Source: Minisyncoccota bacterium (GTDB lineage: Bacteria > Patescibacteriota > Minisyncoccia > UBA6257 > GWB1-50-10). Taken from it: a stretch of DNA of 57,334 nt. The DNA is taken from positions 1 through 57,334 of the forward strand of contig JAYRXE010000010.1 of the NCBI GenBank assembly GCA_041917695.1, read 5' to 3'. Below are positions 15,437-38,050 of this stretch, piece by piece; position 1 is the first letter of the stretch; the number at the start of each line of letters is the position of its first letter. The position numbers were made by a program, and so were the translations under genes. A model generated the notes under the pieces. That model was not told the origin of the DNA and did no database searches. It worked only from the letters and a program-made list of their open reading frames with translations.

Positions 15437-16145
15437 AGGCGGGGTTGGAAAAACCACCATTTCCTACCTGCTCGGAACGCTTCTCTCGCGCCACGGAAAG
15501 AAAACACTTCTGGTGGATACCGATCCACAGTCCAACCTCACTCGAAGCGTCGGGCTTGTACCCGAAAATCTCGGGACGACCATTCTTGATGCGTGGGTCG
15601 GGAAAACACCCGCCGCTCAAGCCCTTGCCAATGTCGGCGAAAACCTCTTCATCCTTCCTTCAAATTTCAATCTGGCTTTTCTCGAACAGAATTTCGGGCC
15701 CTATGTTCTTTCCAAGGAAATCCAACTGAAGAAGGCGCTTGATCCTATCCTCGATGACTTCGACGTCGTCATCGTTGATACGCCGCCGAATTTCGGACTG
15801 ACTGTTTCGAGCGTCCTGGCCTTTGCCAACCTGATCATCGTCCCGGTCAATCCCCATCCCTTCGCTCTCAGCGGTTTTGATCAGTTTTTCAAGATCTTCG
15901 AAGCGGCTCGCCTTGAACTGAACTCCCAGCTTCCGCCCCCCAAAATCCTCCTGAACATGACCGAGCGGACCAACATGACAAAGGTCGTTTTCGAAATGAT
16001 CGACCAAGATTTTCCTGGCGCGCGTCTAATCACCCAACTCAGGCGGACCGTACGTTTGGCCGAGGTTACCGTCTCCGACTTGACCCTTTCCGCCGAAATC
16101 CAAGACGACTTGCTGGCGCTCGCCGCTGAACTTCACCTGCTGTGA
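15405..16145 (+). CDS. parA: ParA/Soj-family partition ATPase
   Basis: Internal Met of ORF 15273..16145. Deviant Walker A KGGVGKTT directly after MPKVISLQNH. DTPP motif. Confidence 0.85.
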   Translation: MPKVISLQNHKGGVGKTTISYLLGTLLSRHGKKTLLVDTDPQSNLTRSVGLVPENLGTTILDAWVGKTPAAQALANVGENLFILPSNFNLAFLEQNFGPYVLSKEIQLKKALDPILDDFDVVIVDTPPNFGLTVSSVLAFANLIIVPVNPHPFALSGFDQFFKIFEAARLELNSQLPPPKILLNMTERTNMTKVVFEMIDQDFPGARLITQLRRTVRLAEVTVSDLTLSAEIQDDLLALAAELHLL

Positions 16146-16152
16146 GGACACC

Positions 16153-17040
16153 ATGTCAAAATCACTCCAATTACGGGGATCGTTCGCTACCCCTGCTAAA
16201 ACAAATTCAACCGCCGACGTTCCACCGAGCGCTTTGCGCTTTCCCCAAACACCGGCGGCCTCGGATCAAATCGTCCCGATCTCCTCCATCAAAGTCGGAT
16301 ACCGGGCACGCAGGTTTTTAGATCTTTCGAAACTCCAATTGCTCAAGGATTCCATCTCGGAAATCGGCCTACTTTCTCCAATTGGGGTGACTCCCGATCT
16401 CGAACTGGTGTATGGAGGGCGACGGCTTCAGGCTTGCCAGGAACTCGGCTTCGAAGGGATTCCGGTTCGCTTCATTCACAATCTTGACGAACTTGCCAAA
16501 CTCAAAGCCGAGCACGATGAGAACGTCTGCCGGCAGGATTTCACCCCCGGTGAAAGGTTTGAGCTGGTGACCCGTCTCTATGAGTTGTTCGAACCGGCTG
16601 CTCAAGAACGTCAGCTTCATTCCCGTTTTCAAAGGAAGCATACGGAACAAACCGATTCGCCTTCCCCCTTACTCGAATCAAACCCGACTCCCAGCGGCGA
16701 AACAGCCGACTTCATATCGACCTTTGTCGGCCTAAGTCCGGCAACCGTCCGCAACATCAAAGCGATCCGTACCTTTGGAGATACGGAACTCGAAGCGAAA
16801 GTCCTTTCAGGAGAAGTCTCGGTTTCCGAGGCAGCCGCCAGAGTCCGAAAACAGAAGAAGGGCAAGGCATCGACGCCAACCAAACTCAACAAGCGACTAA
16901 AGCTAAAGAAAAACCTCGACAATGGGACAGTCCAGGTTCAGATCGACATCCAGCTTACCAGCGGCAAAATCACCCCCGAGAAACTCCAGAGTCTCCTGCA
17001 AGAACTCATCGGGCACATCGAAACGGCGGTCTCTTACTGA
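16153..17040 (+). CDS. parB: ParB/Srx N-terminal-domain protein
   Basis: ParB-box region (LLSPIGV...LVYGGRRLQACQELG). Lies immediately downstream of parA. Confidence 0.75.
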   Translation: MSKSLQLRGSFATPAKTNSTADVPPSALRFPQTPAASDQIVPISSIKVGYRARRFLDLSKLQLLKDSISEIGLLSPIGVTPDLELVYGGRRLQACQELGFEGIPVRFIHNLDELAKLKAEHDENVCRQDFTPGERFELVTRLYELFEPAAQERQLHSRFQRKHTEQTDSPSPLLESNPTPSGETADFISTFVGLSPATVRNIKAIRTFGDTELEAKVLSGEVSVSEAAARVRKQKKGKASTPTKLNKRLKLKKNLDNGTVQVQIDIQLTSGKITPEKLQSLLQELIGHIETAVSY

Positions 17041-17290
17041 CGGTCCCGTTAGCTATCATGGGACCGTGGCTTCCCCGACAGCTTGTTTACCCAGAGCATC
17101 TTTCTTCGACGGTCCCGTTACAGCTAACGGGACCGCGTTTCAGATCGCTTTCACATCGAAACGGCTGTCTCTTTCTGACGGTCCCGTTAGCTATCATGGG
17201 ACCGTGGCTTTCCCGACAGTTTGTTTACTCAGAGCATTTTTCTTCGACGGTCCCGTTACAGCTAACGGGACCGCGTTTCAGATCGCTTTC
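17014..17290. repeat. 138-bp tandem duplication (2 copies, about 96% identical) with four palindromes; candidate parS/centromere or iterons
   Basis: Copy 1 is 17014-17151 and copy 2 is 17152-17289. Each copy holds ACGGTCCC-N12-GGGACCGT (17040-17067, 17178-17205) and CGGTCCCGTTA-cagc-TAACGGGACCG (17110-17135, 17248-17273). Copy 1 overlaps the last 27 nt of parB. Confidence 0.8.
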
Positions 17291-17552: not shown

Positions 17553-18017
17553 TTAAATATTTAAGCGCGGTTCGCCTGAGCACCCCATCCACCAAAAGAC
17601 CAAGGCGACGAACCCGGCGAGGAACAGTAGGCTCGGCAAACTCAGGAAAAGTAACTCGCGGGAGCCGAAGGACTTCTCGTTCCAAGGATCTACAGTCCAG
17701 GTAATTGCCGTCAATAAAGCTGCCCCGAGGAGACCCGAAACGACCAGTTCAATTGCGAACATCACGAATAAGTTTCCCCCGCAGAAATTGAAGCAGAGAA
17801 CACTCGTCAGGATAGGGGTGAACGCCAGAATCGTCGTTCCGATCCTGGCCAACGTCCTATTCAAAGTTTGAGATCGGGTACTCCTTGTTCTTACCCAGAA
17901 CCCTGTCCAAAGGAGTGCGATTCCCAGGATCATTCCGATCATCAATTTGTGCGAAAAGAAGGGGGGTAGCGTTGACGGTCCTTTGAGAAGACCATCGGGA
18001 AGAAGCGCTTCGAACAT
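17553..18017 (-). CDS. integral membrane protein (154 aa)
   Basis: ORF track. Four to five hydrophobic helices. Starts 9 nt after the stop of the giant gene. Confidence 0.6.
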   Translation of the reverse strand: MFEALLPDGLLKGPSTLPPFFSHKLMIGMILGIALLWTGFWVRTRSTRSQTLNRTLARIGTTILAFTPILTSVLCFNFCGGNLFVMFAIELVVSGLLGAALLTAITWTVDPWNEKSFGSRELLFLSLPSLLFLAGFVALVFWWMGCSGEPRLNI

Positions 18018-18026
18018 GATGTCTCC

Positions 18027-21000
18027 TTACATAACCATCGCGTATTGCTCAACGGAGGTATTCCTGCTTCTCTCCGTTTGAACAGCCGGCTGAACGAACC
18101 CTTTCTCCACCATGAAGGCTCTGAGATTTTCGGCTTCGCTCCGGGTCATTTCCCCATTCGGGTCACCCATAACCAGGTTGTCCCGAGCAATGCGGTCGAG
18201 GGTTTTCACATAGGGCGTCAGCATCGAGGGATCGGTATGCCTCATCCCGTGAGAAACTCTCATCATCAAATCGGCATCGATTCCCTGATCCATCAATGCT
18301 GTCACGAATCCTGCATCCTGTTTTGTGAACCCGGTCATACGGGTGACCGAAACATCGACCTTTTGATTCGAACGATAGGCGACGCTGGCTCCGCATGCTT
18401 CGATCAGTTCGATTACCCCTTCGATCTTCTGCTCGTTCTGGAGCCTGTTCATCTCGTTGAACACGACAGTTTCCGTCAACGCGGTTCGACCGGATTCTCT
18501 CGCGGCTCGGCTACTCATGGCCTGGGCGTAGACGGCCTCGGTCAAGACCATGCCATTCAATTTTGCAATCGTTTCGGGGTTGATCGCCGTCTGGGCAAAC
18601 TGTTCAAGTTCGTTCGCTTTATATTTGCCCGGGTTGATTCCTTTGCCGATTTCAATAACCGACATCAACAACGCTTCCCGGTAATGGCGAGGGGATTCGA
18701 GCAAAGCGGTCAATGCCCGGTCGAAGTCGGCCAGGCGCGCGGCCTGATCATCGACCATGACAGGTAGAACCACCTGAACCGGCTTTGGTTCGGTTGCCCT
18801 GATTTCAGGAATTGGCGCACTGGCATGGAAAGGCCTATCCGGCACCGTCGAGGAAGCAGCCATCGGAGTCGATCCGCCGAGATTGCCCGCTGCCCCCCCA
18901 AGTGGGCCTCCACTCTCACTTCCGGGTGTTCCCGACGTTCCACCGCCATCCGGATCGATATCAACGCGCGGAAGAGGGCCTGCACCCTGTTCAGGTTCCT
19001 CGACTTTTCTTCGATTTTCCAGAGCAGTTGCAGCCGTAGATCTGACCTCTTCATCCCCATCGAAAACGGCCATTCTCAGGATGTTCTCGGACATCGGATT
19101 CCGGGGCGAGGCGGCAAAGACCTCAACAACCTTCTGGCGGACGGCCGGGTCCTCGTCGCTGAAGCTTCCGAACAGTTTTTTCCCGGTTTCTTCAACTCCG
19201 ATTCGAGGCCCAAGCAGCTCGACTGCGACGGTTCGCATTTCGGCGTTCCCTGCGTCAAGGTTCCGAAGCAGGAATTTTTCCGCCCAATCGGCAACCGCTT
19301 CATTTTCGGTATCGAAAACACCAAACAAAGCTTCCTTCACTTCTGCCGGGACGGGTTCGTTACCCAAAACCGCTTTTCTCGTTTCCAATTGAACCGAGGG
19401 ATGCTCGTCCGAGAAGCAAACCACCAGTTTTTCTCGGTTTTCAGGATTTTTTGCCAGCTCCTTGAGGGTATAAACAGAAGCCTCTCGAACCTCGGTTGCC
19501 TCCGCTTTCAGCCCTTCAATCACCAGGCGTTTAACTTCCAAGTCTTGTTCCGCAACCGAGGACAGCGAGAAAATTGCGAGACTTCTCGGTTCACTTTCCA
19601 CCCCATCCCCAGCCAAGGCGTAAACTCTCTTCAAAATCTCCTGGTCTTCATTCAATCCATCAAAGACCTTCAACAATACAGCCTTCTGAACTTTCGGATC
19701 TTCTTCAGGCGACATCGCTTCCAATATCGCAGCTCGGACATCACTCTTGTCGAAATGCGGCCACAACTGATCCAACGCCTTGGTTCGAGCCCAGGGATCG
19801 AACTCCCTGTCTGAGAATTTTCTCAGGTTTTCAACAACCTCCGTCGGGATATCCGAGCCCTTACGCGCCTCGACCCCGACTCGGTCTCCGAGAAGATCCA
19901 TCGCAACACCGCGCATTTCGGCGCCACTACCTTTGAGGAGTTGCTGAAGGTAATTCTCGGCCCACCCGCTAACGATTTCGCTCTTATCGTCGAACACTCC
20001 CGCCAAGGCTTCCCTTACCTCTTCAGCGGTCGAGCTTGCCGCCAAGAGTGCTTTTCTCGCCTCTACCCGGACAAAAGGACTTTCATCCGAAATGCAGTCC
20101 TTGAGGCTTTCGCGAACGCCTTCGTTTCTTTCCAGTCCGTTCAATGAATACGCGGAAACGACTCGTACGATTTCCTCTTCGGCCTTTAACCCCGCGGTGA
20201 CCAGCGCTTTCGCCTTCTCGTCATTTTCAACGAGCGAGAGGAGATAAATTCCGAAACTTCTGGTTTTTTCATCAGAGGCCTCGCCGGCCAGCGAGTAGAT
20301 CTCGTCCAAAACGCCGGGATAATTCTCAAGTCCTTCCAGAAACGCCGTTCGATTTTCTTCCTTTCCAAAATTGACCAACAACTGACCCAGGGCTTCCGAT
20401 CTTTCCTCCGGATTGAGCGTGCGGTCCGAAAATCTTTCCAAGTTGTTCCGAAGCAGTTCTTGCTCGGCTTCGGGAATGCCCTGTCGATCCTCACTTCGTT
20501 CCTGCGTTTCCATCTGCCGGGCCTCGGTTTCCTTCACCGCGCTTCCCGTTTCGACAGCCATCGCCGTTTTCCGAACCCCTTCATCCTTATCCGAAAGGGC
20601 CATTCTCATTACACTCCGAGTCAATGGGTTTTCGGGCGAAGCCGCAAACGCTTCCACGACCTTTTCGCGAACTGATGGCTCACCATCGGTGTAAGACAAA
20701 AAGATTTTTTTCGCGATTTCCTCGTCTCCAAGCCGGGGCCCGAGAAGTTCCACCCCCGCGGCGCGCATTTCAGGGCGAGGGTCTTCGATTCTTTGTTGAA
20801 GGTACTTCTCCGCCCATTGGAGAATTTTTTCATCTTCATCCTGGAAAACGCCCTCAAAAGCCTCTTTCACGGCTTCCGAATTCGGGTTGATCCCCAAAAC
20901 CGCTTTTCTCGCATCCAGCCTGACGACGCCGCTTTCATCCGAAAACAGAGCTTTCAGTTTCGTTCGAATTTCAGCTTCCCCGGCCAACTTGGTGAGCACA

Positions 21001-22916
21001 TTGACGGAAGTCTCTCGAACGTTCGCCTCGTTCGCATTCAATCCCTCAACCGCCAATCGTCGAACCTCTTCGTACCTTTCGACGAAGTCGGAAAGGGAAT
21101 AAAGCGCCAGAGTCCGCGTATCGGGACTCACGCCGACGCCGGCCAAGGGATAGATCCTTGTCAAGATCTCTTCGTCACTGCCCAAAGACTCCCAGACTTT
21201 TACCAGGACCTCTTTCTGGATTTGCGGGTCTTCATCAGGAGACAACCCAGCCAACACCGCACTGCGAACTTCACTCTTTTCGAAATTCCTCCACAAAATG
21301 TCCAATGCCTGAGATCTTTCCCAAGAATCGATCTTCCTGTCCGAGAACAATTCCAAGGCTTCCCCTAACTCCTGGGAGATCCCCGTATCCCTTCCGGTTT
21401 CTTCCACCTGTTCCTCGGACACAGGCACGCCTTCGCCCTTGGTCCCGTCCGATCCCAAAGGCACCCCGAATTCGTCCAATAGCTGGTCATTCGTAGGTGG
21501 CGGATTCGGTGACGTCAGAAAGAGGCAGTTCTCGAAAATCCGTTCGGTCGGTTCAAAGTCCGGACTGAATTCCATCGACCTGAATTGGCAGTCCCTGAAA
21601 AGCGCGCCTTCAAATGAAGCTCCCTTGAAGCTGCCGCTCGCGAACGTGGCGTTTCGAATCTCGAAGTTTTCCAGTCTCACCCCGGTGAGGTTGGAAAAAC
21701 TCACCGTGCCTTGTTCCATGCTCGCGTTCAAAAAGTCCGCATCGGTAAAGTCCGATTCATAGATCAGCGAGTTCGAAAATACTGACGACTCCAGGTTGGC
21801 TCCCCGGAACAACCCTTTCATGTTGGCCCCGCTGAAGGTCCCGCGTGAGAGATTCGAGCCGCTGAAATCGACACCGAAAAAGGAGGTGTCGATCCATTTC
21901 GAACTCATCAGGTTCGAATCATTCAGTCTCACGTTTCTGAGGGTCGCGCCTTTCAGGTTTGCGCCGTTGAGTCTCGCACCGGTTCCGGATACGTCCTTGA
22001 AGGTCGTTTTCGAAAGGTCCGCCAAGGAGAAGTCCGCTTTCGAAATATCCTGGTTCTCGATTTTCAGACCGGACAGATTCATCCGGGAGAACTCGCCTCG
22101 ACGACCTCCTTCACCATCGGAATCCAGCCAGTCCATGTGGGCGTTCAACATCCGGTCGAACCCGGACTGGGTCGGACCGATAAGGCTGGACAGCCTCCGT
22201 TCTTCGGTGTCGGGGTTTGCGACAATAAAAATATCCCGGTAGTCGGCGAGTCTTTCACCGTAACTCCGGGCTTCTTCCGGGGTGAACCCGGCTAACTTCA
22301 ACCTGATTCGAACCGGCAGTTCATCATCCCCTTGATTGAGCATTCCATCGGGTTGCGGCCGGTTATCCGGATTTCCGTATTTCAGAATCGTCCAGCTCGG
22401 GGCCTTTTCGATGAAGGCAACCGACGTAACCGGCTCAAGCCGTCCCGGGTTAAGGATGAAGACTTCCTTTTCCAGACATCCCGGCTCCTGGACGAGTTCC
22501 TGAATGACCCGATCCCGATCCTTATCCGAAACCAGTTTCGTCAGCGTTTTATCCAGTAGTTTCAGATCGCTTATTCCGAAAGGTCGAGGCCTTGCTTCCC
22601 CTACAACGGCTCCACTGAGCGTCAATCCGACCACGAAAAGCTCTTCGTCGAGATCGTCGTGCTGGACGACCTCGACATCTCCGAGACCGAAAAACTCGAT
22701 GGTTGTTTTTTGATACGGGAGCGAAAGTTTGACCGTCCCCTGTTCGGTTTTCCTGAAGTCCTCGCTGAACGCCAGTTGGAGCCGGCCATCGTTCGATCCC
22801 AAATGGGCGGGCTCCGCCAAATTGAGTGCCCTCGCAAGTCGGACAATCGACTCTCCTTGCTCATAGGTAACCAGTTCCGTGGTAGCGGGCATCTCGAAGC
22901 TCCTTCTCTCTGACAC
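18027..22916 (-). CDS. giant (1629 aa) pentapeptide-repeat / HEAT-like repeat protein
   Basis: Residues about 290-470 are pentapeptide repeats (ADFSLADLSKTTFKDVSGTGARLNGANLKGATLRNVRLNDSNL...). Three paralogous helical modules of about 200-290 aa follow, each beginning ...FSDR...W/ERS.ALD.LW.NF. A Gly/Pro linker and a roughly 330-aa unique C-terminal domain complete it. Confidence 0.85.
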   Translation of the reverse strand: MSERRSFEMPATTELVTYEQGESIVRLARALNLAEPAHLGSNDGRLQLAFSEDFRKTEQGTVKLSLPYQKTTIEFFGLGDVEVVQHDDLDEELFVVGLTLSGAVVGEARPRPFGISDLKLLDKTLTKLVSDKDRDRVIQELVQEPGCLEKEVFILNPGRLEPVTSVAFIEKAPSWTILKYGNPDNRPQPDGMLNQGDDELPVRIRLKLAGFTPEEARSYGERLADYRDIFIVANPDTEERRLSSLIGPTQSGFDRMLNAHMDWLDSDGEGGRRGEFSRMNLSGLKIENQDISKADFSLADLSKTTFKDVSGTGARLNGANLKGATLRNVRLNDSNLMSSKWIDTSFFGVDFSGSNLSRGTFSGANMKGLFRGANLESSVFSNSLIYESDFTDADFLNASMEQGTVSFSNLTGVRLENFEIRNATFASGSFKGASFEGALFRDCQFRSMEFSPDFEPTERIFENCLFLTSPNPPPTNDQLLDEFGVPLGSDGTKGEGVPVSEEQVEETGRDTGISQELGEALELFSDRKIDSWERSQALDILWRNFEKSEVRSAVLAGLSPDEDPQIQKEVLVKVWESLGSDEEILTRIYPLAGVGVSPDTRTLALYSLSDFVERYEEVRRLAVEGLNANEANVRETSVNVLTKLAGEAEIRTKLKALFSDESGVVRLDARKAVLGINPNSEAVKEAFEGVFQDEDEKILQWAEKYLQQRIEDPRPEMRAAGVELLGPRLGDEEIAKKIFLSYTDGEPSVREKVVEAFAASPENPLTRSVMRMALSDKDEGVRKTAMAVETGSAVKETEARQMETQERSEDRQGIPEAEQELLRNNLERFSDRTLNPEERSEALGQLLVNFGKEENRTAFLEGLENYPGVLDEIYSLAGEASDEKTRSFGIYLLSLVENDEKAKALVTAGLKAEEEIVRVVSAYSLNGLERNEGVRESLKDCISDESPFVRVEARKALLAASSTAEEVREALAGVFDDKSEIVSGWAENYLQQLLKGSGAEMRGVAMDLLGDRVGVEARKGSDIPTEVVENLRKFSDREFDPWARTKALDQLWPHFDKSDVRAAILEAMSPEEDPKVQKAVLLKVFDGLNEDQEILKRVYALAGDGVESEPRSLAIFSLSSVAEQDLEVKRLVIEGLKAEATEVREASVYTLKELAKNPENREKLVVCFSDEHPSVQLETRKAVLGNEPVPAEVKEALFGVFDTENEAVADWAEKFLLRNLDAGNAEMRTVAVELLGPRIGVEETGKKLFGSFSDEDPAVRQKVVEVFAASPRNPMSENILRMAVFDGDEEVRSTAATALENRRKVEEPEQGAGPLPRVDIDPDGGGTSGTPGSESGGPLGGAAGNLGGSTPMAASSTVPDRPFHASAPIPEIRATEPKPVQVVLPVMVDDQAARLADFDRALTALLESPRHYREALLMSVIEIGKGINPGKYKANELEQFAQTAINPETIAKLNGMVLTEAVYAQAMSSRAARESGRTALTETVVFNEMNRLQNEQKIEGVIELIEACGASVAYRSNQKVDVSVTRMTGFTKQDAGFVTALMDQGIDADLMMRVSHGMRHTDPSMLTPYVKTLDRIARDNLVMGDPNGEMTRSEAENLRAFMVEKGFVQPAVQTERSRNTSVEQYAMVM

Positions 22917-22966
22917 CGCCGGTCGTCAACTTGGACGACCGGTCCAGTCGAAACGCTGCGTTCGCT

Positions 22967-23359
22967 TCACGCCGCCTTCCCCAGGTTGAAGGGCACCGGC
23001 TGCGCGTTCAGATCGTTCGGAAATCCTTCGAACTCAATGCCGTCGAGCAGCTCGGAGATCTCGCTGCCCAGATCGATCACGGAGTGTTCTTCGCCGCTGG
23101 TTTTGAGATTGTCGGAGAAGAACGCCCCGAATTCGATTTCGAGGTTCTTTCCGTACTGTTCGTCGCGAACGACGCTTCCCGGGCTGACTTCCTGAATCAC
23201 GCTCGATTCGTGAACGATCACCGAGCGGCCACCCGTGGTGATCATCTGGTAGCGTCTGCCCACGCTTCCAGGAATGTCCGGAATGGCGACGATGCGTCCC
23301 TGCCCGTAGATGGTCGTGTTGACGATGGCCCCGATTTGGAATTGCTTCTTTTCGCTCAT
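22967..23359 (-). CDS. hypothetical protein (130 aa), first gene of the minus-strand operon
   Basis: ORF track. AAGGAG upstream of the ATG. Lies about 40 nt downstream of the predicted minus-strand sigma54 start site. Confidence 0.65.
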   Translation of the reverse strand: MSEKKQFQIGAIVNTTIYGQGRIVAIPDIPGSVGRRYQMITTGGRSVIVHESSVIQEVSPGSVVRDEQYGKNLEIEFGAFFSDNLKTSGEEHSVIDLGSEISELLDGIEFEGFPNDLNAQPVPFNLGKAA

Positions 23360-23410
23360 GGTTTTCTGCTCCTTTGCTTGGCTTTTAAAAGCGGACCTGC
23401 CAGACCTCTT

Positions 23411-23426
23411 GGCGAATTCCGTGCCA
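23411..23426 (-). promoter_or_regulatory. sigma54-type -24/-12 promoter (minus strand)
   Basis: Minus strand reads TGGCACGGAATTCGCC. GG and GC are at the canonical 10-nt spacing. The -12 element is TCGC rather than TTGC. Confidence 0.55.
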
Positions 23427-23502
23427 AAGTTCGATAAGAGCTTCGGAAATCCATAACTCCAACAAAATCAACAAAATGCCTTTTCTTGACGGTTTTTTTA
23501 AT

Positions 23503-23518
23503 TTCCGGAAATCAGGAA
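23503..23518. promoter_or_regulatory. 16-bp palindrome TTCCGGA-AA-TCAGGAA (putative enhancer-binding-protein site)
   Basis: 7-2-7 inverted repeat between the two divergent sigma54 promoters. The same architecture occurs at 26194, 26222, 35495 and 50891. Confidence 0.55.
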
Positions 23519-23642
23519 ACTTAAAAGTGATTCCTAAAATTAAGACTCTTACGGAGTTGTCGTTTTGCTTTCCCCAAATTTCCCGCCCTTGAAAATCAAT
23601 GACTTAGCCCAAAAAAAGAAATGCCCGCGAACGGCATTTCAT

Positions 23643-23658
23643 TGGCACGCATATTGCT
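23643..23658 (+). promoter_or_regulatory. sigma54-type -24/-12 promoter (plus strand)
   Basis: TGGCACGCATATTGCT matches TGGCACG-N4-TTGCW exactly. Confidence 0.65.
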
Positions 23659-23695
23659 TGATTCCGAGTACTTTCTCGGAAAGGGTTTCAACGGC

Positions 23696-25024
23696 ATGCA
23701 TGGAATCGAAGGGTTCGGCGAACAAAGAGGCAGACTGCTTGCGGTCCAAATGGAAGCCGAAGCTGCAACTCAACGCATGATCGATCACGAGAACAATCTC
23801 GGTTTTATCGAGATTGCGCTGGACAACCCGCAAGCTGCCGGGCTCAAGCCTCGCACCGGTCTACACACGGTCACCCTCCATGACCTGGTTTCCGCGCGTA
23901 GCGCGACCGAACGCCTCGTCGAGGAGGTAGAAGTAAATTTCAACTTCGCCGCCTTGAATACCTTCTACGAGATCGCGAGACAAAAGACGGTTCAGGCGGT
24001 CGGTGCTCAGGGTCGAGTACAGGATGTGCAGGCAGTCGTGTCCTACCTTAAAGACCCGGGTGCCGGGTTGAAGCAAACCCTCACGGGTGAAATTCTCAAA
24101 GGAACGGACAGACAGACGGCGGAAACCTTCGACAACGCCCAGAAGGTTCGACAGGGGCTCGGAATACTCAAGCAACTTGCCGCCAAGGACCCGGAAGCCG
24201 CGGCGTTACTCGACCGGTACAAACTTCAGACCTCCCTCGAACAGATGGTCCTCGAAGCGCATTCCCAAACCCTTCAGTCGCTCGCCAAACACGCATCCTC
24301 GGCCGAGATCAAAAGGGACGCACTGGAAGGGATCGTCGCCGATCACACCGCCCAGCTCACCGCATCCGGCACTCCCATTCCTAACGCGGTGTTCTCGGAT
24401 GAGGCGCTGAATGTGGCGCTTCAAAATGCCAGCGGCATTCGCTCTTCGACACTCATCGAGGAGTTCGGTCAAGTCCTTCGACAGACGCCCCTCACTCCGG
24501 AAGCGAAACAGATCGTCGTCAACCGGCTGTACGGCGCGACGGATTTTTTGCATTCAAGGGCCGCACACGAAACTCTTGTTTCAATGCAAACCCAGGACGC
24601 CGTGGACCGGATCGAGCGCGGTCAGATTCCGTCCGATCCCACCCTTTTCAGAACCCTCGTTGAAGTACCCGAAGGTCTCACGATCGAGGGCCGTGAACTT
24701 CAACAGTTCAGGGGGGTCGAAGGCGGACAGAAACAGGTCCAATTCGTTCTCGAACAACTCACTCGTAAGCACGAAGGCGTAAGCGTTGCGGAGATCCAGA
24801 ATGCCGCCCGGTTCGCCGCGGCACACGACACCGCCCAGACCGCGCGGGAAGTCGAAGTCATGACGAACGACCTTTCGCGCGAATGGAAGATCAGTCCGGA
24901 TCGCGCGTTGCTCACCGCGAGCGAGCGCGATTACCTCAAGGCTGTATCAATCGATCCGGCCGTCACCGCACCGGCCCAGGAAGATATCGCTCTTACGGCT
25001 GCTGAAGCCGCACTTACTCTTTGA
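23696..25024 (+). CDS. hypothetical alpha-helical protein (about 443 aa)
   Basis: ORF 23621..25024. The first ATG lies upstream of the sigma54 promoter, so the internal Met MHGIEG (23696) is the more likely start. Confidence 0.65.
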   Translation: MHGIEGFGEQRGRLLAVQMEAEAATQRMIDHENNLGFIEIALDNPQAAGLKPRTGLHTVTLHDLVSARSATERLVEEVEVNFNFAALNTFYEIARQKTVQAVGAQGRVQDVQAVVSYLKDPGAGLKQTLTGEILKGTDRQTAETFDNAQKVRQGLGILKQLAAKDPEAAALLDRYKLQTSLEQMVLEAHSQTLQSLAKHASSAEIKRDALEGIVADHTAQLTASGTPIPNAVFSDEALNVALQNASGIRSSTLIEEFGQVLRQTPLTPEAKQIVVNRLYGATDFLHSRAAHETLVSMQTQDAVDRIERGQIPSDPTLFRTLVEVPEGLTIEGRELQQFRGVEGGQKQVQFVLEQLTRKHEGVSVAEIQNAARFAAAHDTAQTAREVEVMTNDLSREWKISPDRALLTASERDYLKAVSIDPAVTAPAQEDIALTAAEAALTL

Positions 25025-25044
25025 AGGAAGGAACCCGAAATCCC

Positions 25045-25224
25045 ATGACGCATTCGACCATTTACGACGATCCCTATCTCGATGAGCTTCTTCAACAGGA
25101 ACAGGAACCTTCCCTTTCCCCCGAACTCTCCCGCCGGGTCGATGAGCGGCTCAGACAATTTCGCGGCCCCCTCCCCGAAGGGCTGATCGAGGCCGAGGTC
25201 GGCAAGATGGGAATTTTCGATTGA
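25045..25224 (+). CDS. small acidic hypothetical protein (59 aa)
   Basis: ATG at 25045 inside ORF 25021..25224. GAAGGAAGG upstream. Confidence 0.45.
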   Translation: MTHSTIYDDPYLDELLQQEQEPSLSPELSRRVDERLRQFRGPLPEGLIEAEVGKMGIFD

Positions 25225-25245
25225 AAAAAGTTCGGTAGAAAGGTT

Positions 25246-25713
25246 TTGAGGACTGCCATGCAAGCGACATCGACTCAACTGAATCCCGCGGAAGAATGGC
25301 TCCGGCGATGGAAGGAGTTCGCCCTGATGTTTGACGTGATGCTTAAAGCGGAGGGCCAGGGGCGGGTTGCGTTGGGTCGTCAGTGCGCCGCCTATTCCTA
25401 CAGGCTTTTCATCTCGCAAAACTTCACCGACGCGATTCCGGCCGCGCACTTTGGAAAGCTCGCTGCCCCCGATTTACCCGAGGTCCTCATCGTTCATGGG
25501 GCAGCCTGCTACATGCGCCGGTCGTTGAACCCCGATCTCCTCGTCGAAGCCAGGGAATCCTGGCAAGTGGCGGCGGCTTCCGAATCCCCCGTCAAGGTAC
25601 TGGCGGAACAACTTCTTTCCATCATCGATCTGAATGTGGTCGATCCGTTCAAGACGTTCCTCCTGACTCCCGGGATGCCTTTTCCTTCAAACGACTTCAC
25701 CGTTCAGAGCTGA
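25246..25713 (+). CDS. hypothetical protein (about 151-155 aa)
   Basis: ORF track. Alternative ATG at 25258. Confidence 0.55.
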   Translation: MRTAMQATSTQLNPAEEWLRRWKEFALMFDVMLKAEGQGRVALGRQCAAYSYRLFISQNFTDAIPAAHFGKLAAPDLPEVLIVHGAACYMRRSLNPDLLVEARESWQVAAASESPVKVLAEQLLSIIDLNVVDPFKTFLLTPGMPFPSNDFTVQS

Positions 25714-25719
25714 ATCACT

Positions 25720-26166
25720 ATGCCCCACTCCAAAAAGATTTCACCCACCGAACGCCACCAATTCGCTCAGGTCCTCAACCGTGTCCGTCACGCAGGGCAA
25801 TTAGCCAGTAATGACATGGTTGTCGGCCGTTCCTCCGAAGTCCCTTTTGGGAAGATCGGATCAACGGCTTTCGAGCAGGCGCAAATCGCCAGGGACCTTT
25901 CCTGTTGGTGCATGCACGTCGAAGCACTTCAGGCACTCGCCCTCGCGTTCCATCTGCTTGACCATCCCAAGGACCAGCACCTGCGACAACTTGCCGATCT
26001 TCCCGAGTTGAACCGAATCCTTACGGAAGCGGCCGAGGAAGTCGCCGTCTATTCAACGGCCCACTTCATCTGTCACCGGGCGGATCTCCTTCAATCAGGC
26101 GTGAAGAAATTTTCGGACGAGGCCATCCTTTTGGCCACCCGCTTTTCAGTCCCCTGCCCGATCTGA
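25720..26166 (+). CDS. hypothetical protein (148 aa)
   Basis: ORF track. Tightly spaced after the previous gene. Confidence 0.55.
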   Translation: MPHSKKISPTERHQFAQVLNRVRHAGQLASNDMVVGRSSEVPFGKIGSTAFEQAQIARDLSCWCMHVEALQALALAFHLLDHPKDQHLRQLADLPELNRILTEAAEEVAVYSTAHFICHRADLLQSGVKKFSDEAILLATRFSVPCPI

Positions 26167-26193
26167 GTTTTCAAAGAAACGCTCGATCTAAAT

Positions 26194-26237
26194 TTCCTGA
26201 TTTTAGGAATCTCCTCTGGTATTCCTGAATTCAGGAT
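26194..26237. promoter_or_regulatory. two copies of the 16-bp palindrome (TTCCTGA-TT-TTAGGAA and TTCCTGA-AT-TCAGGAT)
   Basis: 26194-26209 and 26222-26237, centred 92 and 64 nt upstream of the sigma54 -24 element at 26293. Confidence 0.55.
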
Positions 26238-26292
26238 TTTGTCGTTTAGGGGCAAACTATTGGATTGTAAAGACTTGTGAACATTCTTTATT

Positions 26293-26308
26293 TGGCACGA
26301 CGTTTGCT
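26293..26308 (+). promoter_or_regulatory. sigma54-type -24/-12 promoter upstream of the helicase gene
   Basis: TGGCACGACGTTTGCT matches TGGCACG-N4-TTGCW exactly. Confidence 0.65.
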
Positions 26309-26317
26309 TTTTCAATC

Positions 26318-27991
26318 TTGAACCCGCGTCCGTCGATTTTCGACAAAGACCACTCTGAAAAAACCAAATACGCGCATTTTCGAAGCATGCTCAGACTTCG
26401 CCCATACCAGAACGAATGCGTCGGCGCCTGCCAGAAAAAATGGGAAGAAGGCTACGCGCGCCTGCTCGTCGCACTTGCGACCGGTTTGGGAAAAACGATC
26501 CTTTTTTCCGAAATTGCGAGTCAGCGGATTCGCAAAAACAACAAGGAACGAGTCCTGATTCTCGCCCATCTGGACGAACTCCTGACTCAGGCGACCGAAA
26601 AGATTCCCTTGGTCGATCCGAATCTCCAGTCGCACATCATCCGAAAAGGCCACATCGATCACTCGGCGCCGGTTCACCTCATCTCCGTCCAATCGGCCTC
26701 GACACCCCAAACGCTCGACCAGCTCCGAAAAGTCGGCTACGGCTTGGTGATTGTTGACGAGGCCCATCACACCCCGGCCGATGAATACCAGGTTGTCCTG
26801 GGGGAACTCGGATGTTTCTCTGGGCAAACCAAACTGCTCGGAGTGACCGCCACGCCGTTCAGGACCGACGACCGGGAACTCGACGAAACCTTCGAGGTGA
26901 CCGCCTACAAGAAAGGAATTCTGGAAGGGATCATCGAGGGGTACTTGGCCGACCTGAGAGGAATCGAGGTCCCCATCGATTGCGACCTCGGACAGTCGAG
27001 CGGGTCCGACTACAATGCCGGCAAACTCGGTCGCATTCTGAGAGGCGTGCTCCCGGAAGTCGCGCTCGATACGATCCAGCGATACGCCCCGAACCGGAAA
27101 ACCATCATCTTCGTTCCGACTATCGAGGTCGCCCGCGATGTCGCCGCGACACTGGTCGCCCACGGCATCTCAGCCGACCACGTTTCTGGCGAGGGTACCC
27201 CTACCGAACGTCGTCGAAAGATCGCCGACTACCGGGCCAATAAAATCCGGGTCCTCGTCAACGCAATGCTTTTGACTGAAGGCTTCGACGATCCCGAAAC
27301 CGATTGCGTGATCGTCGCCAGACCGACCCTGAGCAAGGGGCTCTATATTCAGATGATCGGCCGCGGCCTGCGTTTGTTTCCCGGCAAATCCGACTGCCTG
27401 GTCGTGGACCTCGTTCCTAAAGGCCACAAATCGCCGACGCTCACCTTGGCCGAGATGGCAAGGGTGACACCTGAAGAAGCCCGGAATCGGGGAATGCGCG
27501 CCCTCTACAAGAAAAAGAAGCAATCCGCCGATTCTCTCGGGAATCCCAAATGGGGAGATGGTCACGAGCGAAATCTTTTCGCGGATCTCAACTGGAGCCG
27601 CTTCGAGGGCGAGGTCTACGGGATACAGGTGGAAAAAACGTCGGTGGTCCTTTTCCCGGTGTCCGGGTTCGACCGCTACCATCCCCTGTACGATGTGTTC
27701 ATCCAGGAAGGCTCCCAAGGGCAGTTCCTTCATCGATCCCTTTCTCTCCCGTATTCCCAAGGAGTGGCCGAGGACCTGATTCGAGACCGAAATGCCTTTC
27801 AGCTCACAAAAACTCAGGCAGGATGGCGAGACCTACCAGTGACCGACTCGCAGTTTCAGGCCCTTCAAATCAACAAACTTCCCTTCCACAAAGACATGAC
27901 CCGCGGCGAGGCCTGTGACCTGATTCAGCAATCGAAACTCTCCCGAGTCGTTCAGGCGCTTCGTCGAAAAAGCCAGGAACAAGCCGCTTGA
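26318..27991 (+). CDS. superfamily-2 DEAD/DEAH-box helicase with a C-terminal extension
   Basis: Motif I ATGLGKT, motif II VDEAHH, motif III TATP, helicase-C region (MLLTEGFDDPE...ARPT...QMIGRGLR). The TTG start at 26318 lies at the predicted transcription start. ATG at 26387 is an alternative. Confidence 0.85.
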   Translation: MNPRPSIFDKDHSEKTKYAHFRSMLRLRPYQNECVGACQKKWEEGYARLLVALATGLGKTILFSEIASQRIRKNNKERVLILAHLDELLTQATEKIPLVDPNLQSHIIRKGHIDHSAPVHLISVQSASTPQTLDQLRKVGYGLVIVDEAHHTPADEYQVVLGELGCFSGQTKLLGVTATPFRTDDRELDETFEVTAYKKGILEGIIEGYLADLRGIEVPIDCDLGQSSGSDYNAGKLGRILRGVLPEVALDTIQRYAPNRKTIIFVPTIEVARDVAATLVAHGISADHVSGEGTPTERRRKIADYRANKIRVLVNAMLLTEGFDDPETDCVIVARPTLSKGLYIQMIGRGLRLFPGKSDCLVVDLVPKGHKSPTLTLAEMARVTPEEARNRGMRALYKKKKQSADSLGNPKWGDGHERNLFADLNWSRFEGEVYGIQVEKTSVVLFPVSGFDRYHPLYDVFIQEGSQGQFLHRSLSLPYSQGVAEDLIRDRNAFQLTKTQAGWRDLPVTDSQFQALQINKLPFHKDMTRGEACDLIQQSKLSRVVQALRRKSQEQAA

Positions 27992-28100
27992 CCCGAGATC
28001 TCAACCGACACGGATCCAACGGAAATTTTTTGTTTGCGGAAGTATTACTCGAACCTGTCTTTCCGATGACCAGGCGCGCGGCAAGCCTCGGCCTTCAGGC

Positions 28101-29602
28101 TTGTCTTTATCCACAGAATGTTCATTTACAAGGAGTGGGTCAAAGGTTGGTAGTCAGATGATTCAGGGGGTAATGGAGTGATGACCTTGGGTTTATCGGT
28201 TGAGGCGTGGTCGGAGCAGGAATTTTCGGGGTCGAGTTTCAGCGATGAGCGGATGAGTCGTCGGGCGGTGGCGATCGGTTCGGCGATGGCGCGTCATCCG
28301 GGGAATGGATTGGGTCAGATGTTTGGGCGGGTTTCGGAGGTTCGTGCGGCGTACCGGTTCGTGAATCATGCGGAAGCGACGCCGGAAACGATTCAGTACG
28401 GTCATCGGGAGCGGGTGTTTTCGGAGATGGGAACGGGTTGGTATTTGCTCCTGGAAGACACGAGCGAGATTTTGTGCAGTCGGGGCGAGGAGATCGAGGG
28501 GTTGGGACCGATTGGCGGGAGTCGGACGCGCAAGATCGGATTTTTGCTGCATACGACGTTGGCGGTCAGATGGGACGGGAGCGGGGCGGGGGTGCATCGT
28601 CGGGCGGTGGAGGTGGTTGGGATTGCGGATCAGTCGTACCGGATTCGCGAGCCGCAGCCCGGGCGTGGTCCGGATCGGGGTTCGCGTCGTCGGCAAGTCG
28701 GAAGCGGGGTGGAGTCCGGGGTCTGGGAGCAGACGTCGCATCGGCTGGGTCATCCGCCACCGGGAGCGCGATGGATCAAGGTGGGTGATCGTGGGGCGGA
28801 TATTTACGATCATTTGATGAGTTGCCGGGCGAACGGTCAGGATTTCGTGATTCGGGCGCAGGCGGATCGGGTGATTGAGGAGACCCCGGGGCGATTGTTT
28901 GTGGCGGCGCGGGCGACGGCGGCAAAGGACGAAACGAGTCGGTTGACGTTGCGTCGCCGCGGGCAAACACCGAAACGCACCGCACGGCTGTCGGTGAGCG
29001 TGACGGTGGTTCGGATTCAGTCGCCGCAGGTCGTCGGATTTCGCCGTGGGGCGCGTCCGGCACTCACGGTCACGCTGGTCCGGGCCTGGGAGGCCGATCC
29101 GCCACCGGGTGTGACGGCGCTGGAATGGATTTTGTTGACCAGTCTGCCGGTTGAGACGACGGCGCAGGCGTGGGAAATCGTTCGGATGTACGCGACCCGC
29201 TGGCTGGAGGAAGAATTTCACAAAGCCTTGAAAACCGGGCTTGGACTGGAGCGCCAGCAAATGGAAAGCGCCGCGGCGTGGTTTGCCGTGACGGCCCTGA
29301 TGAGCGTGGTCGCCGTACGTCTGATTGCGCTTCGGGAAGTGGTTCGCGCCGCGCCCGCCGCACCCGCCGATCAGTCCGGATTGACGCCAACCGAACAGGC
29401 GGTCTTGAGCCTGCGCGCCGAACGGCCATTGAAAACGGTCCGCGATGTCGCACTCGCGCTGGCACGACTTGGAGGTCATATGAACCGGGCCGGGGATGGT
29501 CTCCCCGGCTGGATCGTTCTCTGGCGCGGCTGGCAAGTACTCCAAAATCTGATCGAAGGGGTTCACATTGCCCGTAAATTGACTTTCTGTGGATAAAGAC
29601 AA
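28101..29602 (+). mobile_element. IS4-family (IS50/Tn5-like) insertion sequence, 1502 bp
   Basis: Perfect 16-bp terminal inverted repeats: TTGTCTTTATCCACAG at 28101-28116 and CTGTGGATAAAGACAA at 29587-29602. Flanked by the 10-bp direct repeat GCCTTCAGGC (28091-28100 and 29603-29612). Confidence 0.9.
28178..29596 (+). CDS. IS4-family DDE transposase (472 aa)
   Basis: Fills the IS. The stop lies inside the right IR. The N-terminus resembles the Tn5 transposase N-terminal domain (...AAYRFVNH...). Confidence 0.85.
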   Translation: MMTLGLSVEAWSEQEFSGSSFSDERMSRRAVAIGSAMARHPGNGLGQMFGRVSEVRAAYRFVNHAEATPETIQYGHRERVFSEMGTGWYLLLEDTSEILCSRGEEIEGLGPIGGSRTRKIGFLLHTTLAVRWDGSGAGVHRRAVEVVGIADQSYRIREPQPGRGPDRGSRRRQVGSGVESGVWEQTSHRLGHPPPGARWIKVGDRGADIYDHLMSCRANGQDFVIRAQADRVIEETPGRLFVAARATAAKDETSRLTLRRRGQTPKRTARLSVSVTVVRIQSPQVVGFRRGARPALTVTLVRAWEADPPPGVTALEWILLTSLPVETTAQAWEIVRMYATRWLEEEFHKALKTGLGLERQQMESAAAWFAVTALMSVVAVRLIALREVVRAAPAAPADQSGLTPTEQAVLSLRAERPLKTVRDVALALARLGGHMNRAGDGLPGWIVLWRGWQVLQNLIEGVHIARKLTFCG

Positions 29603-29654
29603 GCCTTCAGGCCGGGGAAGGATAGCGCGAACGCGGAAGGCGTCTTCCCGTGGA

Positions 29655-30071
29655 TCAGTGAGGTCTCTGCTGTTGCTGGATGTACTGCCTGATGATCTCG
29701 ATGGGCGCACCGCCGCAGCTTCCGGCAAAGTAGGAAGGAGACCAGAGGGCGCCGCCCAATAGCTTCTTTCTGATCCCTAGGTCGTTTTTCTTTCGAATCA
29801 GTCGGCTGGAGACTCCCTTCAAACTGTTCACCAGCGCCGACACCGCGACCTTCGGCGGGTAATTCACCAGCAGATGGACGTGATCGTCCTCGCCGTCGAA
29901 CTCCACGAGTTCCGCCTCGAAGTCCGCGCAGACGCTGGAAAAGATTTCGCGCAAATCGTCGAGAATATCGATCGTGAAGACATTTCGGCGGTATTTGGTC
30001 ACGAAGACCAAATGGACGTGCATAAGAAAAACACAATGCCTGCCGTGTCGAATATCGTTGTCATCGCTCAT
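29655..30071 (-). CDS. tnpA: IS200/IS605 TnpA, HUH/Y1 single-strand transposase (138 aa)
   Basis: Internal Met MSDDNDIRHGRH of ORF 29655..30350. HUH motif HVHLLV and the Tyr-containing C-terminal helix (APIEIIRQYI). Confidence 0.85.
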   Translation of the reverse strand: MSDDNDIRHGRHCVFLMHVHLVFVTKYRRNVFTIDILDDLREIFSSVCADFEAELVEFDGEDDHVHLLVNYPPKVAVSALVNSLKGVSSRLIRKKNDLGIRKKLLGGALWSPSYFAGSCGGAPIEIIRQYIQQQQRPH

Positions 30072-30092
30072 GGACCAAATTATAATCCAGAC

Positions 30093-31331
30093 ATGAGACG
30101 ACTCCAAGCCTTCAAATTCGAACTGATGCCGACCGGAGATCAGAAGCGCCGGATGCGGCGTTGTGCCGGTTCGTGTCGGGTTGTGTTCAACGAGGCTTTG
30201 AGTTTGCGGAAAGCGTGTTCCGAGAATGGGGAAAAAATGCCCGGCTACGCGGAGTTGTGCCGGGAGCTGACGGCCTGGCGCAATGGCGCGCCGCTGCCAT
30301 CCGGGCGGGTTGCGCGCTGGCTTGGAGACGCGCCGGTGCATCCGCTCCAACAGAAACTCAAGGATCTGTTGCGGGCCTACGACAACTTCTTCGCCAAAAG
30401 GGCGGACTTCCCGCGCTTCAAGAAGAAGGGGCAGGGGGACAGCTTCAGGTATCCCGATCCCAAGCAGATCAAACTCGACTCCGCCAACAACCGGGTCTTC
30501 CTGCCCAAACTCGGCTGGCTGCGGTATCGGAACAGCCGCCCAGTGCCGGGCGAGTTAAAGCAGGTGACGGTATCCGCCATCGGCGACAAGTGGTTCGTCA
30601 GCATCCAGACCGAACGCGAGATTCCCGATCCTGTATTGAAGGCGACCAGCTCGGTAGGCATCGACCTTGGGATCGCCCGCTTCGCCACCCTGTCGGATGG
30701 CACGTTCCACTCCCCGCTCAACAGTTTCAAGCTGCACGAAGTCGCGCTCCGCAAGGCGCAACAGGCGTTGAGCCACAAAACAAAATTCAGCCACAACTGG
30801 AAGAAGGCCAAGGCCAGAGTTCGCACCCTTCATGCCCGAATTGCCAATGCTCGCCGCGACTACCTGCACAAAATCACGACCACCATCAGCCAAAATCACG
30901 CGATGGTGTGCATTGAGGATTTGCAGGTTCGGAACATGTCCCGTTCGGCGGCTGGAACGGCGGAAAATCCGGGCCGGAAGGTCAAAGCGAAATCAGGCCT
31001 GAACAAGGCCATCCTGGACCAGGGATGGTACGAGTTCCGCCGTCAGCTTGAGTACAAACTGGCGTGGCAGGGCGGGCGGCTGATTGCCGTCCCGCCAATG
31101 AACACGAGCCGCTCCTGTCCCCATTGCGGCCATGTGTCGGCGGACAACCGGCGCACGCAATCGCGGTTCGCGTGTGTCACATGCAAGTTCGAGGAACACG
31201 CCGACGTGGTCGGCGCGATCAACATTCTCAGGGCGGGACACGCCCGTTGCGCCTGTGAAGTGAGCGGTGCGGTAAGGCCGCCAGCAGCAGGAACCCACCG
31301 AAGCGACTCACCCGGCTCACTGCGGGAATGA
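30093..31331 (+). CDS. tnpB: TnpB (IS605 OrfB) RNA-guided nuclease family protein (412 aa)
   Basis: Internal Met MRRLQAFKFELMPT of ORF 29874..31331. RuvC residues read intact in GIDLGI, CIEDLQV and HADVVGAINI. Zinc finger CPHCG...CVTC. Confidence 0.85.
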   Translation: MRRLQAFKFELMPTGDQKRRMRRCAGSCRVVFNEALSLRKACSENGEKMPGYAELCRELTAWRNGAPLPSGRVARWLGDAPVHPLQQKLKDLLRAYDNFFAKRADFPRFKKKGQGDSFRYPDPKQIKLDSANNRVFLPKLGWLRYRNSRPVPGELKQVTVSAIGDKWFVSIQTEREIPDPVLKATSSVGIDLGIARFATLSDGTFHSPLNSFKLHEVALRKAQQALSHKTKFSHNWKKAKARVRTLHARIANARRDYLHKITTTISQNHAMVCIEDLQVRNMSRSAAGTAENPGRKVKAKSGLNKAILDQGWYEFRRQLEYKLAWQGGRLIAVPPMNTSRSCPHCGHVSADNRRTQSRFACVTCKFEEHADVVGAINILRAGHARCACEVSGAVRPPAAGTHRSDSPGSLRE

Positions 31332-31382
31332 GCGCCGTAGGAATCCCCGGCCTTTAGGCCGGGGAGGATGTCAAGTTTATAT

Positions 31383-31674: not shown

Positions 31675-31675
31675 C

Positions 31676-33204: not shown

Positions 33205-33299
33205 TTCCTTTATACTGAGGTTTAATTATAGATAAAACGTAACAAAAATGCACGCATGTCACGCATTTTAGGTCGCTAAATATTCTTTATTCCCACAAG

Positions 33300-33365: not shown

Positions 33366-33495
33366 CAACCTTTTCAGTTCCGGAGCTATTGCCCGACCCT
33401 CTTTGCTCGATGACAACCGGCCTCGAGAAAAAAATTTCGAGGCCTCGCCAAAAACGGCGCGGCAAATGGGAATGACCAGAGCGTACGAACCGGCA

Positions 33496-38047: not shown

Positions 38048-38050
38048 ATC

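Follow-up and report, generated by a model that had tools for sequence, protein, structure and literature searches.

Promoters and Gene Content

We analyzed a 57,334-bp contig of a Minisyncoccota bacterium (JAYRXE010000010.1, assembly GCA_041917695.1; the whole stretch is called the window below) and found 13 sigma-54–driven genes arranged in two modules and forming a lineage-restricted regulon. Module A consists of three minus-strand genes for proteins of 154, 1629, and 130 aa, divergent from four plus-strand orphan genes (442, 59, 151, and 148 aa) and a helicase gene, and Module B consists of genes for four minor-pilin-type proteins and a 516-aa secreted protein. A first-pass annotation of the sequence had placed a cluster of ten genes at 17553–27991. 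Eight of these are convincing, in agreement with independent gene calls for a close relative (L006), and the genes of this interval are real; the limits did not hold, as a fourth promoter and five further genes (35845–41006) belong to the cluster as well. A literature search found no description of such a cluster. Gene starts were corrected by alignment with orthologues, the longest open reading frames (ORFs) enclosing two of the promoters. For comparison, we used three contigs encoding relatives of the 442-aa orphan, called L001, L002, and L006, the last of which is 97% identical to the window.

The sigma-54 motif TGGCAC-N5-TYGC has four exact sites in the window, against 0.12 expected, and allowing one mismatch revealed no further sites. 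All four are intergenic, lie in the cluster, and are oriented toward its genes; their −24/−12 geometry is that expected of activator-dependent promoters. On the minus strand, TGGCACGGAATTCGC (23412–23426) drives the operon of the 130-, 1629-, and 154-aa genes and has its counterparts at 1850–1864 in L001, 1694–1708 in L002, and 9790–9804 in L006. The plus-strand site TGGCACGCATATTGC (23643–23657), inside the longest ORF, drives the orphan operon and is matched at 2087 in L001, 1927 in L002, and 10023 in L006. The helicase is driven by TGGCACGACGTTTGC (26293–26307, plus strand), with matches at 6483 in L002 and 14572 in L006; L001 has no such site because its helicase starts 23 nt after the 149-aa gene and is thus part of the orphan operon. 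The fourth site, TGGCACGATGCTTGC (35593–35607, plus strand), drives the pilin operon.

Upstream of every promoter, at a distance of 71–133 bp, we found the palindrome TTCC-N8-GGAA, with three exact matches against 0.13 expected. The sites are paired, each palindrome having a weaker second site at a spacing of approximately 28 bp. The two divergent promoters share one activator region at 23503–23544 (inverted repeat I1), with the palindrome TTCCGGAAATCAGGAA at 23503–23518 and a degenerate second site ∼27 bp away. Two palindromes, TTCCTGATTTTAGGAA at 26194 and TTCCTGAATTCAGGAT at 26222, stand 28 bp apart before the helicase promoter (26194–26237), and a fourth, TTCCGGAAATCCGGAA at 35495–35510, has a half-site 28 bp downstream. 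In L006, the homologous region upstream of the pilin operon contains TTCCTAAATCTAGGAA and a promoter at 18148. The promoters and the 16-bp palindrome that the first-pass annotation had noted before three transcription units were thus recovered, at 23412, 23643, and 26293 and at 23503, 26194, and 26222, respectively.

A different palindrome is shared in L002 by the divergent region (1780–1835, AAGATTCTCG) and the region upstream of the helicase (6370–6405, CGAAAATCTT). The activator site differs between lineages and is shared within one, which is consistent with the activator and its sites evolving together. In L001, we found no clear palindrome common to the divergent region and the pilin promoter.

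Gene Order in Relatives and Later Insertions

The gene order is best seen in L001, which has no insertions. It begins with the pentapeptide protein, cut by the contig end, and the 129-aa gene; divergently from these follow genes for proteins of 445, 61, 150, and 149 aa and the 533-aa helicase, continuing with 434, 316 (N_methyl), 146, and 296 aa and a convergent gene of 519 aa. All 12 genes are contiguous, and blastp pairs every one of them with a window gene at 34–66% identity; the relative of the 442-aa orphan is 46% identical in L001 and 58% in L002. L002 has the same left half and a 607-aa HEAT protein before the helicase, and the sigma-54 promoters are found at matching positions in all three relatives.

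It had been suggested that the cluster should be regarded as a chance juxtaposition if its genes did not co-occur in other genomes or if the proteins belonged to housekeeping families. Gene order is kept in L001, L002, and L006, all nonhelicase proteins are without a housekeeping-family match, and the genes form a co-regulated unit, so that chance juxtaposition is not upheld. The distribution is nevertheless narrow: searches of PLSDB by megablast and tblastn gave no match to the cluster, and profiles of the 442-aa, 293-aa, and 516-aa proteins and of the N-terminal domain of the giant protein found nothing in GTDB species genomes, JGI metagenome contigs, or IMG/VR.

Between the 148-aa gene and the helicase, L006 and L002 carry a HEAT protein of 597 and 607 aa, respectively (HEAT-597 below), with the same C-terminal domain as the 1629-aa protein, a feature that links the two divergent operons to each other. 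A blastn comparison with the corresponding region of L006 (12516–14466) located a deletion scar at 26136–26187, where the window has lost the 597-aa gene; L001 also lacks it. We further compared the window (23621–26166 and 35845–37119, in the case of synonymous divergence) with L006. The ratio of nonsynonymous to synonymous divergence (pN/pS) was 0.22 for the 442-aa gene, 0.13 for the 151-aa gene, 0.28 for the 148-aa gene, and 0.09 for the helicase, and it stayed within this range of 0.09–0.28 when the 424-aa gene of Module B was included, indicating that the tested genes are real coding genes under purifying selection. Synonymous divergence itself was very uneven, at 0.03 and 0.06 in the 442-aa gene and the helicase, 0.16 and 0.17 in the 151- and 424-aa genes, and 0.33 in the 148-aa gene, which suggests recombination mosaicism around the deletion site.

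The two modules are separated in the window by secondary insertions (27993–35352), identified by blastn against L006 and absent from L001. They comprise an IS4/Tn5-like transposase (28178–29596), an IS605 TnpB (29874–31331), AbiEii/AbiEi (31676 to ∼33249), and a Ser/Thr kinase–FGE fusion (33496–35352). The block of the IS4/Tn5-like element and TnpB (27993–31398) is inserted relative to L006, AbiEii/AbiEi lies downstream of the helicase in both, and the kinase–FGE gene stands where L006 has two small genes; the best plasmid matches of the kinase are cyanobacterial, at ∼34% identity. Cyanobacteria are not known to have sigma-54, and a cyanobacterial origin of the window was rejected for this reason; the Verru_Chthon-like match and the kinase–FGE fusion give no more than a hint of a PVC-type origin. 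Since L001 has neither insertion sequences (IS), AbiE, nor the kinase, these elements split the cluster later and the defense-island context is not ancestral.

The insertions are bracketed by copies of the helicase 3′ end at 27716–27992 and 31399–31675 (277 bp, 89% identity), with a 37-bp remnant at 33301–33337; matching remnants occur in L006 at 15996–16272, 17878–17923, and 17962–18013. From this arrangement, the helicase 3′ end looks like an att-like hotspot at which cassettes, including AbiE and IS elements, have been inserted serially. The cluster had been described as flanked by a plasmid-like par module and a patch of IS elements and AbiE, in a neighborhood typical of defense systems. 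ParA/ParB indeed lie upstream and IS elements and AbiEii downstream of the helicase, but the latter are insertions within the cluster, of which L006 has only AbiE, and the defense-island look of the locus comes from them.

Proteins of Module A

The three minus-strand genes of the first-pass annotation were all present and the Pfam repeats were seen. The first gene of the operon encodes a 130-aa orphan (22967–23359) with orthologues in L001 and L002 at 34–39% identity; it has no match in Pfam, PADLOC, PHROGs, or NCBIfam, and a PDB profile search returned noise only (E>0.05). The last gene (17553–18017), also found in L006, encodes a membrane protein of 154 aa, for which a hydrophobicity scan indicated about four hydrophobic segments, and gave no family match in Pfam, PADLOC, or NCBIfam. 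Between them lies the gene for the giant protein of 1629 aa (18027–22916), a cytoplasmic protein whose start is probably at M9.

Using Pfam, NCBIfam, and internal repeats, we resolved the giant protein into an orphan N-terminal domain (aa 1–270), a pentapeptide beta-helix of ∼200 aa (∼271–470), a HEAT region (515–1309), a Gly/Ser/Pro-rich linker, and an orphan C-terminal domain of ∼245 aa (∼1385–1629). The HEAT region consists of three tandem modules (515–800, 826–1016, and 1026–1309), the first and third of which are 51% identical. The pentapeptide region scores 59 bits against PF00805 (cutoff 20) and 62 bits against PF13599 (cutoff 38), and its NCBIfam matches are HetL/Qnr-like. Pentapeptide-repeat proteins such as HetL, Qnr, and MfpA share this type of beta-helix, found here above the Pfam thresholds; the giant protein differs from them in embedding the repeats among HEAT arrays and two orphan end domains within 1629 aa, and it falls far below every curated equivalog cutoff. 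The N-terminal ∼270 aa have no family match, and their orthologues in L001 and L002 are 35–48% identical. For the C-terminal domain, HMMER, run exhaustively against 1.84 billion representatives, found only the domain itself and its paralogue in HEAT-597, and a PDB profile search gave only noise (E>0.05).

The four plus-strand proteins had been reported to lack recognizable motifs, and indeed none matched a family in the databases scanned. The largest, starting at M26 of a 467-aa ORF according to the orthologue alignment, is a predicted all-helical protein of 442 aa (23696–25024) with only three relatives among 5.8 billion proteins. Its AlphaFold2 model, built from a three-sequence alignment, showed long helices only, with a predicted local distance difference test (pLDDT) score of 54; as Foldseek found nothing below E=1 in PDB, the model was discarded. 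It is followed by a 59-aa orphan (25045–25224; a 67-aa ORF taken from its first ATG, called as 59 aa in L006), a 151-aa orphan (25258–25713; 155-aa ORF), and a 148-aa orphan (25720–26166), with identities to L001 and L002 of 46–57, 49–59, and 39–47%, respectively. The 59-aa protein has no match in Pfam or PADLOC, and the other three have none in Pfam, PADLOC, PHROGs, or NCBIfam. No orphan gave a significant match in the PDB profile searches, those with the 151- and 148-aa families returning noise at E>0.05. The idea that the 151- and 148-aa proteins are paralogues was rejected on comparison.

The helicase call proved correct, with ResIII and Helicase_C domains detected by Pfam in the ORF at 26318–27991. 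This longest ORF encodes 557 aa, and the orthologue alignment places the true start near 26387, at M24, giving a superfamily 2 (SF2) helicase of 534 aa (26387–27991) with a further C-terminal domain. It is 60% identical to the helicases of L001 and L002 and matches phrog_16 (2.8e-80) and RadD structures in PDB (6jde, 1.7e-37), Escherichia coli RadD being the closest among solved structures. Its score of 165 bits against the RadD equivalog NF053632 lies below the cutoff of 720 bits and makes it a related SF2 protein rather than a RadD orthologue. More than 2300 relatives were found at E<1e-30, typically with ∼35% identity over the full length (96% of length), and those that are 37–39% identical are encoded in phage-like modules for replication, together with primase/DnaB, Prim-Pol, HNH, and ParB. 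The helicase thus belongs to a common RadD-like family of phage and plasmid type and does not stand alone. What distinguishes it from RadD (YejH) and the IRC3-like helicases of phages and plasmids (phrog_16), with which it shares the SF2 core, is its placement under a sigma-54 promoter or, in L001, inside the orphan operon. By these searches, the orphans and the end domains of the giant protein are true orphans and the helicase is a common type.

The nearest helicase outside the cluster, P0006 (40% identity), is encoded after a secretin–T2SSE–T2SSF operon and before a 286-aa HEAT protein (locus L003, 844–12604; JGI 3300037462, also GCA_025491035.1). The helicase is here linked for a second time to filament genes and a HEAT protein. 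The element also encodes a 3722-aa PriCT_2/AAA_34/Helicase_C_4 protein, a Tn3 transposase, and an SLT lytic transglycosylase.

Pilin Genes of Module B

The minor-pilin operon (35845–39407, plus strand) was recognized by an N_methyl match, prepilin motifs, and synteny with L001. It encodes a 424-aa secreted Ig-like protein, prepilin-type proteins of 312 and 143 aa, and a Cys-rich protein of 293 aa whose N terminus is hydrophobic. Prepilin motifs of class III signal peptides are present in the 312-aa (AG|YSLIELI) and 143-aa (NG|TLYVELL) proteins and not evident in the 424- and 293-aa proteins; partners bearing signal peptides are present in the module. The N_methyl match has an E-value of 1.2e-5 and TIGR02532 scores above its cutoff, and GspJ, ComGE, and Verru_Chthon cassette D match weakly. 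Convergent with the operon lies the gene for the 516-aa secreted protein (39456–41006, minus strand), whose family has only seven members.

The 516-aa protein is found beside the pilin operon in L001 and in two further loci, L012 and L015. The latter two have the same five Module B genes (35–67% identity) directly downstream of GGDEF, T2SSE, T2SSF, and T2SSE genes and behind perfect sigma-54 promoters, with no helicase or orphans adjacent. The linkage to genes for assembly ATPase and platform, seen in these loci and not on the window's contig, argues that Module B represents the minor pilins or tip of a type IV filament, as its sequence motifs would also predict, and these loci show it standing without Module A. 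A homologue of the 516-aa protein is encoded in L013 and L014 without the pilins. The modules are separable. As in known minor pseudopilin tip sets (GspH-I-J-K of the type II secretion system, FimU-PilVWX-PilY1 of type IV pili, and Verru_Chthon cassettes A–D), Module B is a four-gene cassette with prepilin-type N termini, and its relatives lie downstream of T2SSE/T2SSF genes; it differs in family scores far below the curated cutoffs, in having a clear G|xxxxE in only two of the four proteins, and in the 516-aa secreted partner.

A sigma-54 promoter before the pilin operon is conserved in five loci. The arrangement is reminiscent of the sigma-54/PilR control of pilin genes (Pseudomonas and Myxococcus pilA), with −24/−12 promoters and activator sites ∼70–130 bp upstream. 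Here, however, activator sites also precede three operons without pilus-like proteins, the site sequence is TTCC-N8-GGAA, and the contig has no activator gene.

Upstream of the 424-aa gene, we observed a conserved leader block (…GGTRAAGA…TTTTTCTGGTGTGRTAG) at 35738–35773 in the window and 6282–6319 in L001. It is also present in L006 and aligns with the perfect sigma-54 promoters of L012 (5508–5522) and L015 (6356–6370). From this alignment, the block appears to be a decayed remnant of an ancestral promoter, whose place in the window and L006 appears to have been taken by a new promoter, with its activator site, lying farther upstream.

Interpretation of the Regulon

The finding is broader in extent than originally described, narrower in distribution, and less clearly one system, and the cluster is best filed as an unusual sigma-54–controlled type IV filament regulon that recruited an orphan helicase–scaffold module. 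As for the function, we tentatively propose that a single activator switches on the pilus tip proteins together with a cytoplasmic and membrane-associated complex processing DNA that passes through the filament, in a pilus-coupled DNA-handling module on a mobile replicon. An activator encoded elsewhere would switch on all four promoters together, and the pilins would be assembled by a pilus machine likewise encoded elsewhere. Module A would form a cytoplasmic and membrane-associated complex, in which the HEAT arrays of the giant protein provide the scaffold, its pentapeptide beta-helix offers a surface shaped like DNA, and the helicase supplies the motor. Such a complex might handle DNA entering or leaving through the filament, in uptake or in transfer of a mobile replicon. 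The pentapeptide proteins MfpA and Qnr are established DNA mimics. We count in favor of the proposal that all four sigma-54 sites of the window are in the cluster, each with a palindrome upstream, and that they recur in the relatives. The palindrome shared within L002, the gene order of L001, the low pN/pS, the pilin identity of Module B, and the L003 locus also speak for it. By analogy, the pairing resembles that of the ComG pseudopilus with the ComFA helicase: competence machinery likewise places pseudopilins and an SF2 ResIII/Helicase_C ATPase under one regulator. The window differs from it in the extra giant scaffold and orphans and in a helicase closest to RadD/phrog_16, and it lacks ComGA/GB.

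Several observations weigh against this proposal. No ComEC, ComEA, DprA, pilus ATPase, platform protein, or secretin was found among the ORFs of the contig scanned with Pfam and NCBIfam, and no activator gene either, none of the ORFs scanned matching Sigma54_activat. The helicase relatives at 37–39% identity sit in phage replication modules and not in pilus loci, and L003 has only the helicase in common with the cluster and no sigma-54 sites. Module B stands without Module A in L012 and L015, the 516-aa protein stands alone in L013 and L014, and no homology was found between Module A and the unknown genes in the pilus loci of L003, L012, and L015. Finally, Module A is known from no more than three independent lineages, and the orphans gave no structural or sequence clue. 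A less specific idea, possible though doubtful, is that Module A, taken as the giant protein, its HEAT-597 paralogue, the membrane protein, five orphans, and the RadD-like helicase, is an undescribed multiprotein machine working with a type IV filament in a poorly studied bacterial lineage, either as a new route of DNA uptake or transfer or as a pilus-triggered defense.

Alternatively, Module A might be an undescribed defense against phages or plasmids. The helicase would then be the sensor or motor, the giant protein would serve as a scaffold or do the sensing, and the effector would be the membrane protein or one of the orphan end domains. A mobile, plasmid-like contig, a very narrow distribution with variable content such as the gain or loss of HEAT-597, and a site downstream of the helicase that repeatedly receives cargo, including AbiE, would fit this, as would the similarity of the helicase domain to type I/IV restriction enzymes, PbeA, and Dpd; the HEAT region matches the PADLOC candidates HEAT-ARM_XIII and HEAT_CxxC_PDDEXK by repeat similarity only. 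However, PADLOC-DB 2.0 gave only generic helicase-domain and HEAT-repeat matches and no system-level match, in keeping with the earlier statement that the cluster matches no named system, and ten proteins have no match at all. We found no nuclease, NADase, protease, or other recognized effector domain, AbiE and the IS elements are secondary and absent from L001, and it is, to our knowledge, unusual for defense genes to depend strictly on sigma-54 and an activator and to share their regulation with pilins. The likeness to helicase-based defense systems (Zorya ZorD, Druantia, Dpd, and Pbe) is confined to a weakly similar helicase domain, the presence of large partners with repeats, and the mobile setting, whereas partner matches, an effector domain, and a PADLOC architecture are missing here. 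None of the analyses gave positive evidence for the defense or conflict function suggested at first, which is decidedly unlikely. More improbable still is a cell-death module with the giant N-terminal domain as a gasdermin-like pore former. A profile of this domain gave bacterial gasdermin (8sl0 and 7n51) as its top two PDB matches, in a gapless alignment of 95 residues placing RVIQELV on the gasdermin LYVITQVI, but the E-values were 0.3–0.4 and both matches are the same protein. Pfam and PADLOC found no gasdermin in any of the three orthologues, a single-sequence AlphaFold2 model reached a pLDDT of 33, and, given the eight similar profile searches that were run, one such match is expected by chance; we treated it as such.

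Two further explanations, both of which we regard as unlikely, do without a single system. In one, the conserved block is the backbone of a plasmid-like replicon, the helicase and perhaps the orphans serving replication, recombination, or establishment and the pilins being cargo or related to mating. ParA/ParB and a candidate centromere repeat adjoin the block, the contig has no tRNA, Rfam, or housekeeping matches, the phrog_16 match and the helicase relatives next to primase/DnaB, Prim-Pol, and ParB point the same way, and an ExoI-like gene neighbors the 516-aa homologue in L013. Against this, we recognized neither a replication initiator nor a relaxase or genes for type IV secretion, PLSDB and IMG/VR gave no matches, and the replication genes of a backbone do not normally stand behind a sigma-54 promoter that requires an activator. 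In the other, up to three modules (the operon of the giant protein, that of the orphans and helicase, and the pilins) are functionally unrelated neighbors under one activator, and the synteny reflects recent common descent of a few related contigs and no shared mechanism. That both Module B and the 516-aa protein are found in places where Module A is not, that Module A is known from only three diverged lineages, and that the divergent and pilin regions of L001 share no clear palindrome all fit this explanation. It is at odds with a gene order kept at 34–66% identity while the neighboring cargo turns over, with the fusion of the L001 helicase into the orphan operon, and with the domain that the giant protein and HEAT-597 share and that is found nowhere else.

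If the link between the modules proposed here is functional, a mobile replicon would carry a pilus tip set and a cytoplasmic helicase–scaffold complex that answer to the same sigma-54 activator. The locus would then be a testable candidate for DNA handling coupled to type IV filaments outside model organisms and would give seven protein families with essentially no relatives their first functional context.

Contig Context

Scans of the contig for tRNA and Rfam families were empty and no housekeeping genes were found, and the contig looks like a plasmid or an island. Immediately after parB, a 138-bp unit occurs twice in tandem (17014–17289, 96% identity), with inverted repeats of 27 nt in both units; the array of L006 is shorter by one copy. 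The repeat is a candidate centromere or parS array. Other mobile content includes a MerT–HMA fusion (3657–4370), a Mu/Tn7-like transposase (rve and Mu-transpos_C) with a TniB-like ATPase (5842–9752), and a second IS605-family TnpB (41313–42653), bringing the IS605 TnpB genes of the contig to two. A CI-type repressor with an S24 peptidase domain is encoded at 46537–47379. On the minus strand at 12462–14444, we found a gene for a 660-aa protein with an exonuclease I–like N terminus (NCBIfam, 2e-29). Its homologue in L013 (3840–5297, 36% identity) is convergent with that of the 516-aa protein, which hints at a shared backbone of the element.

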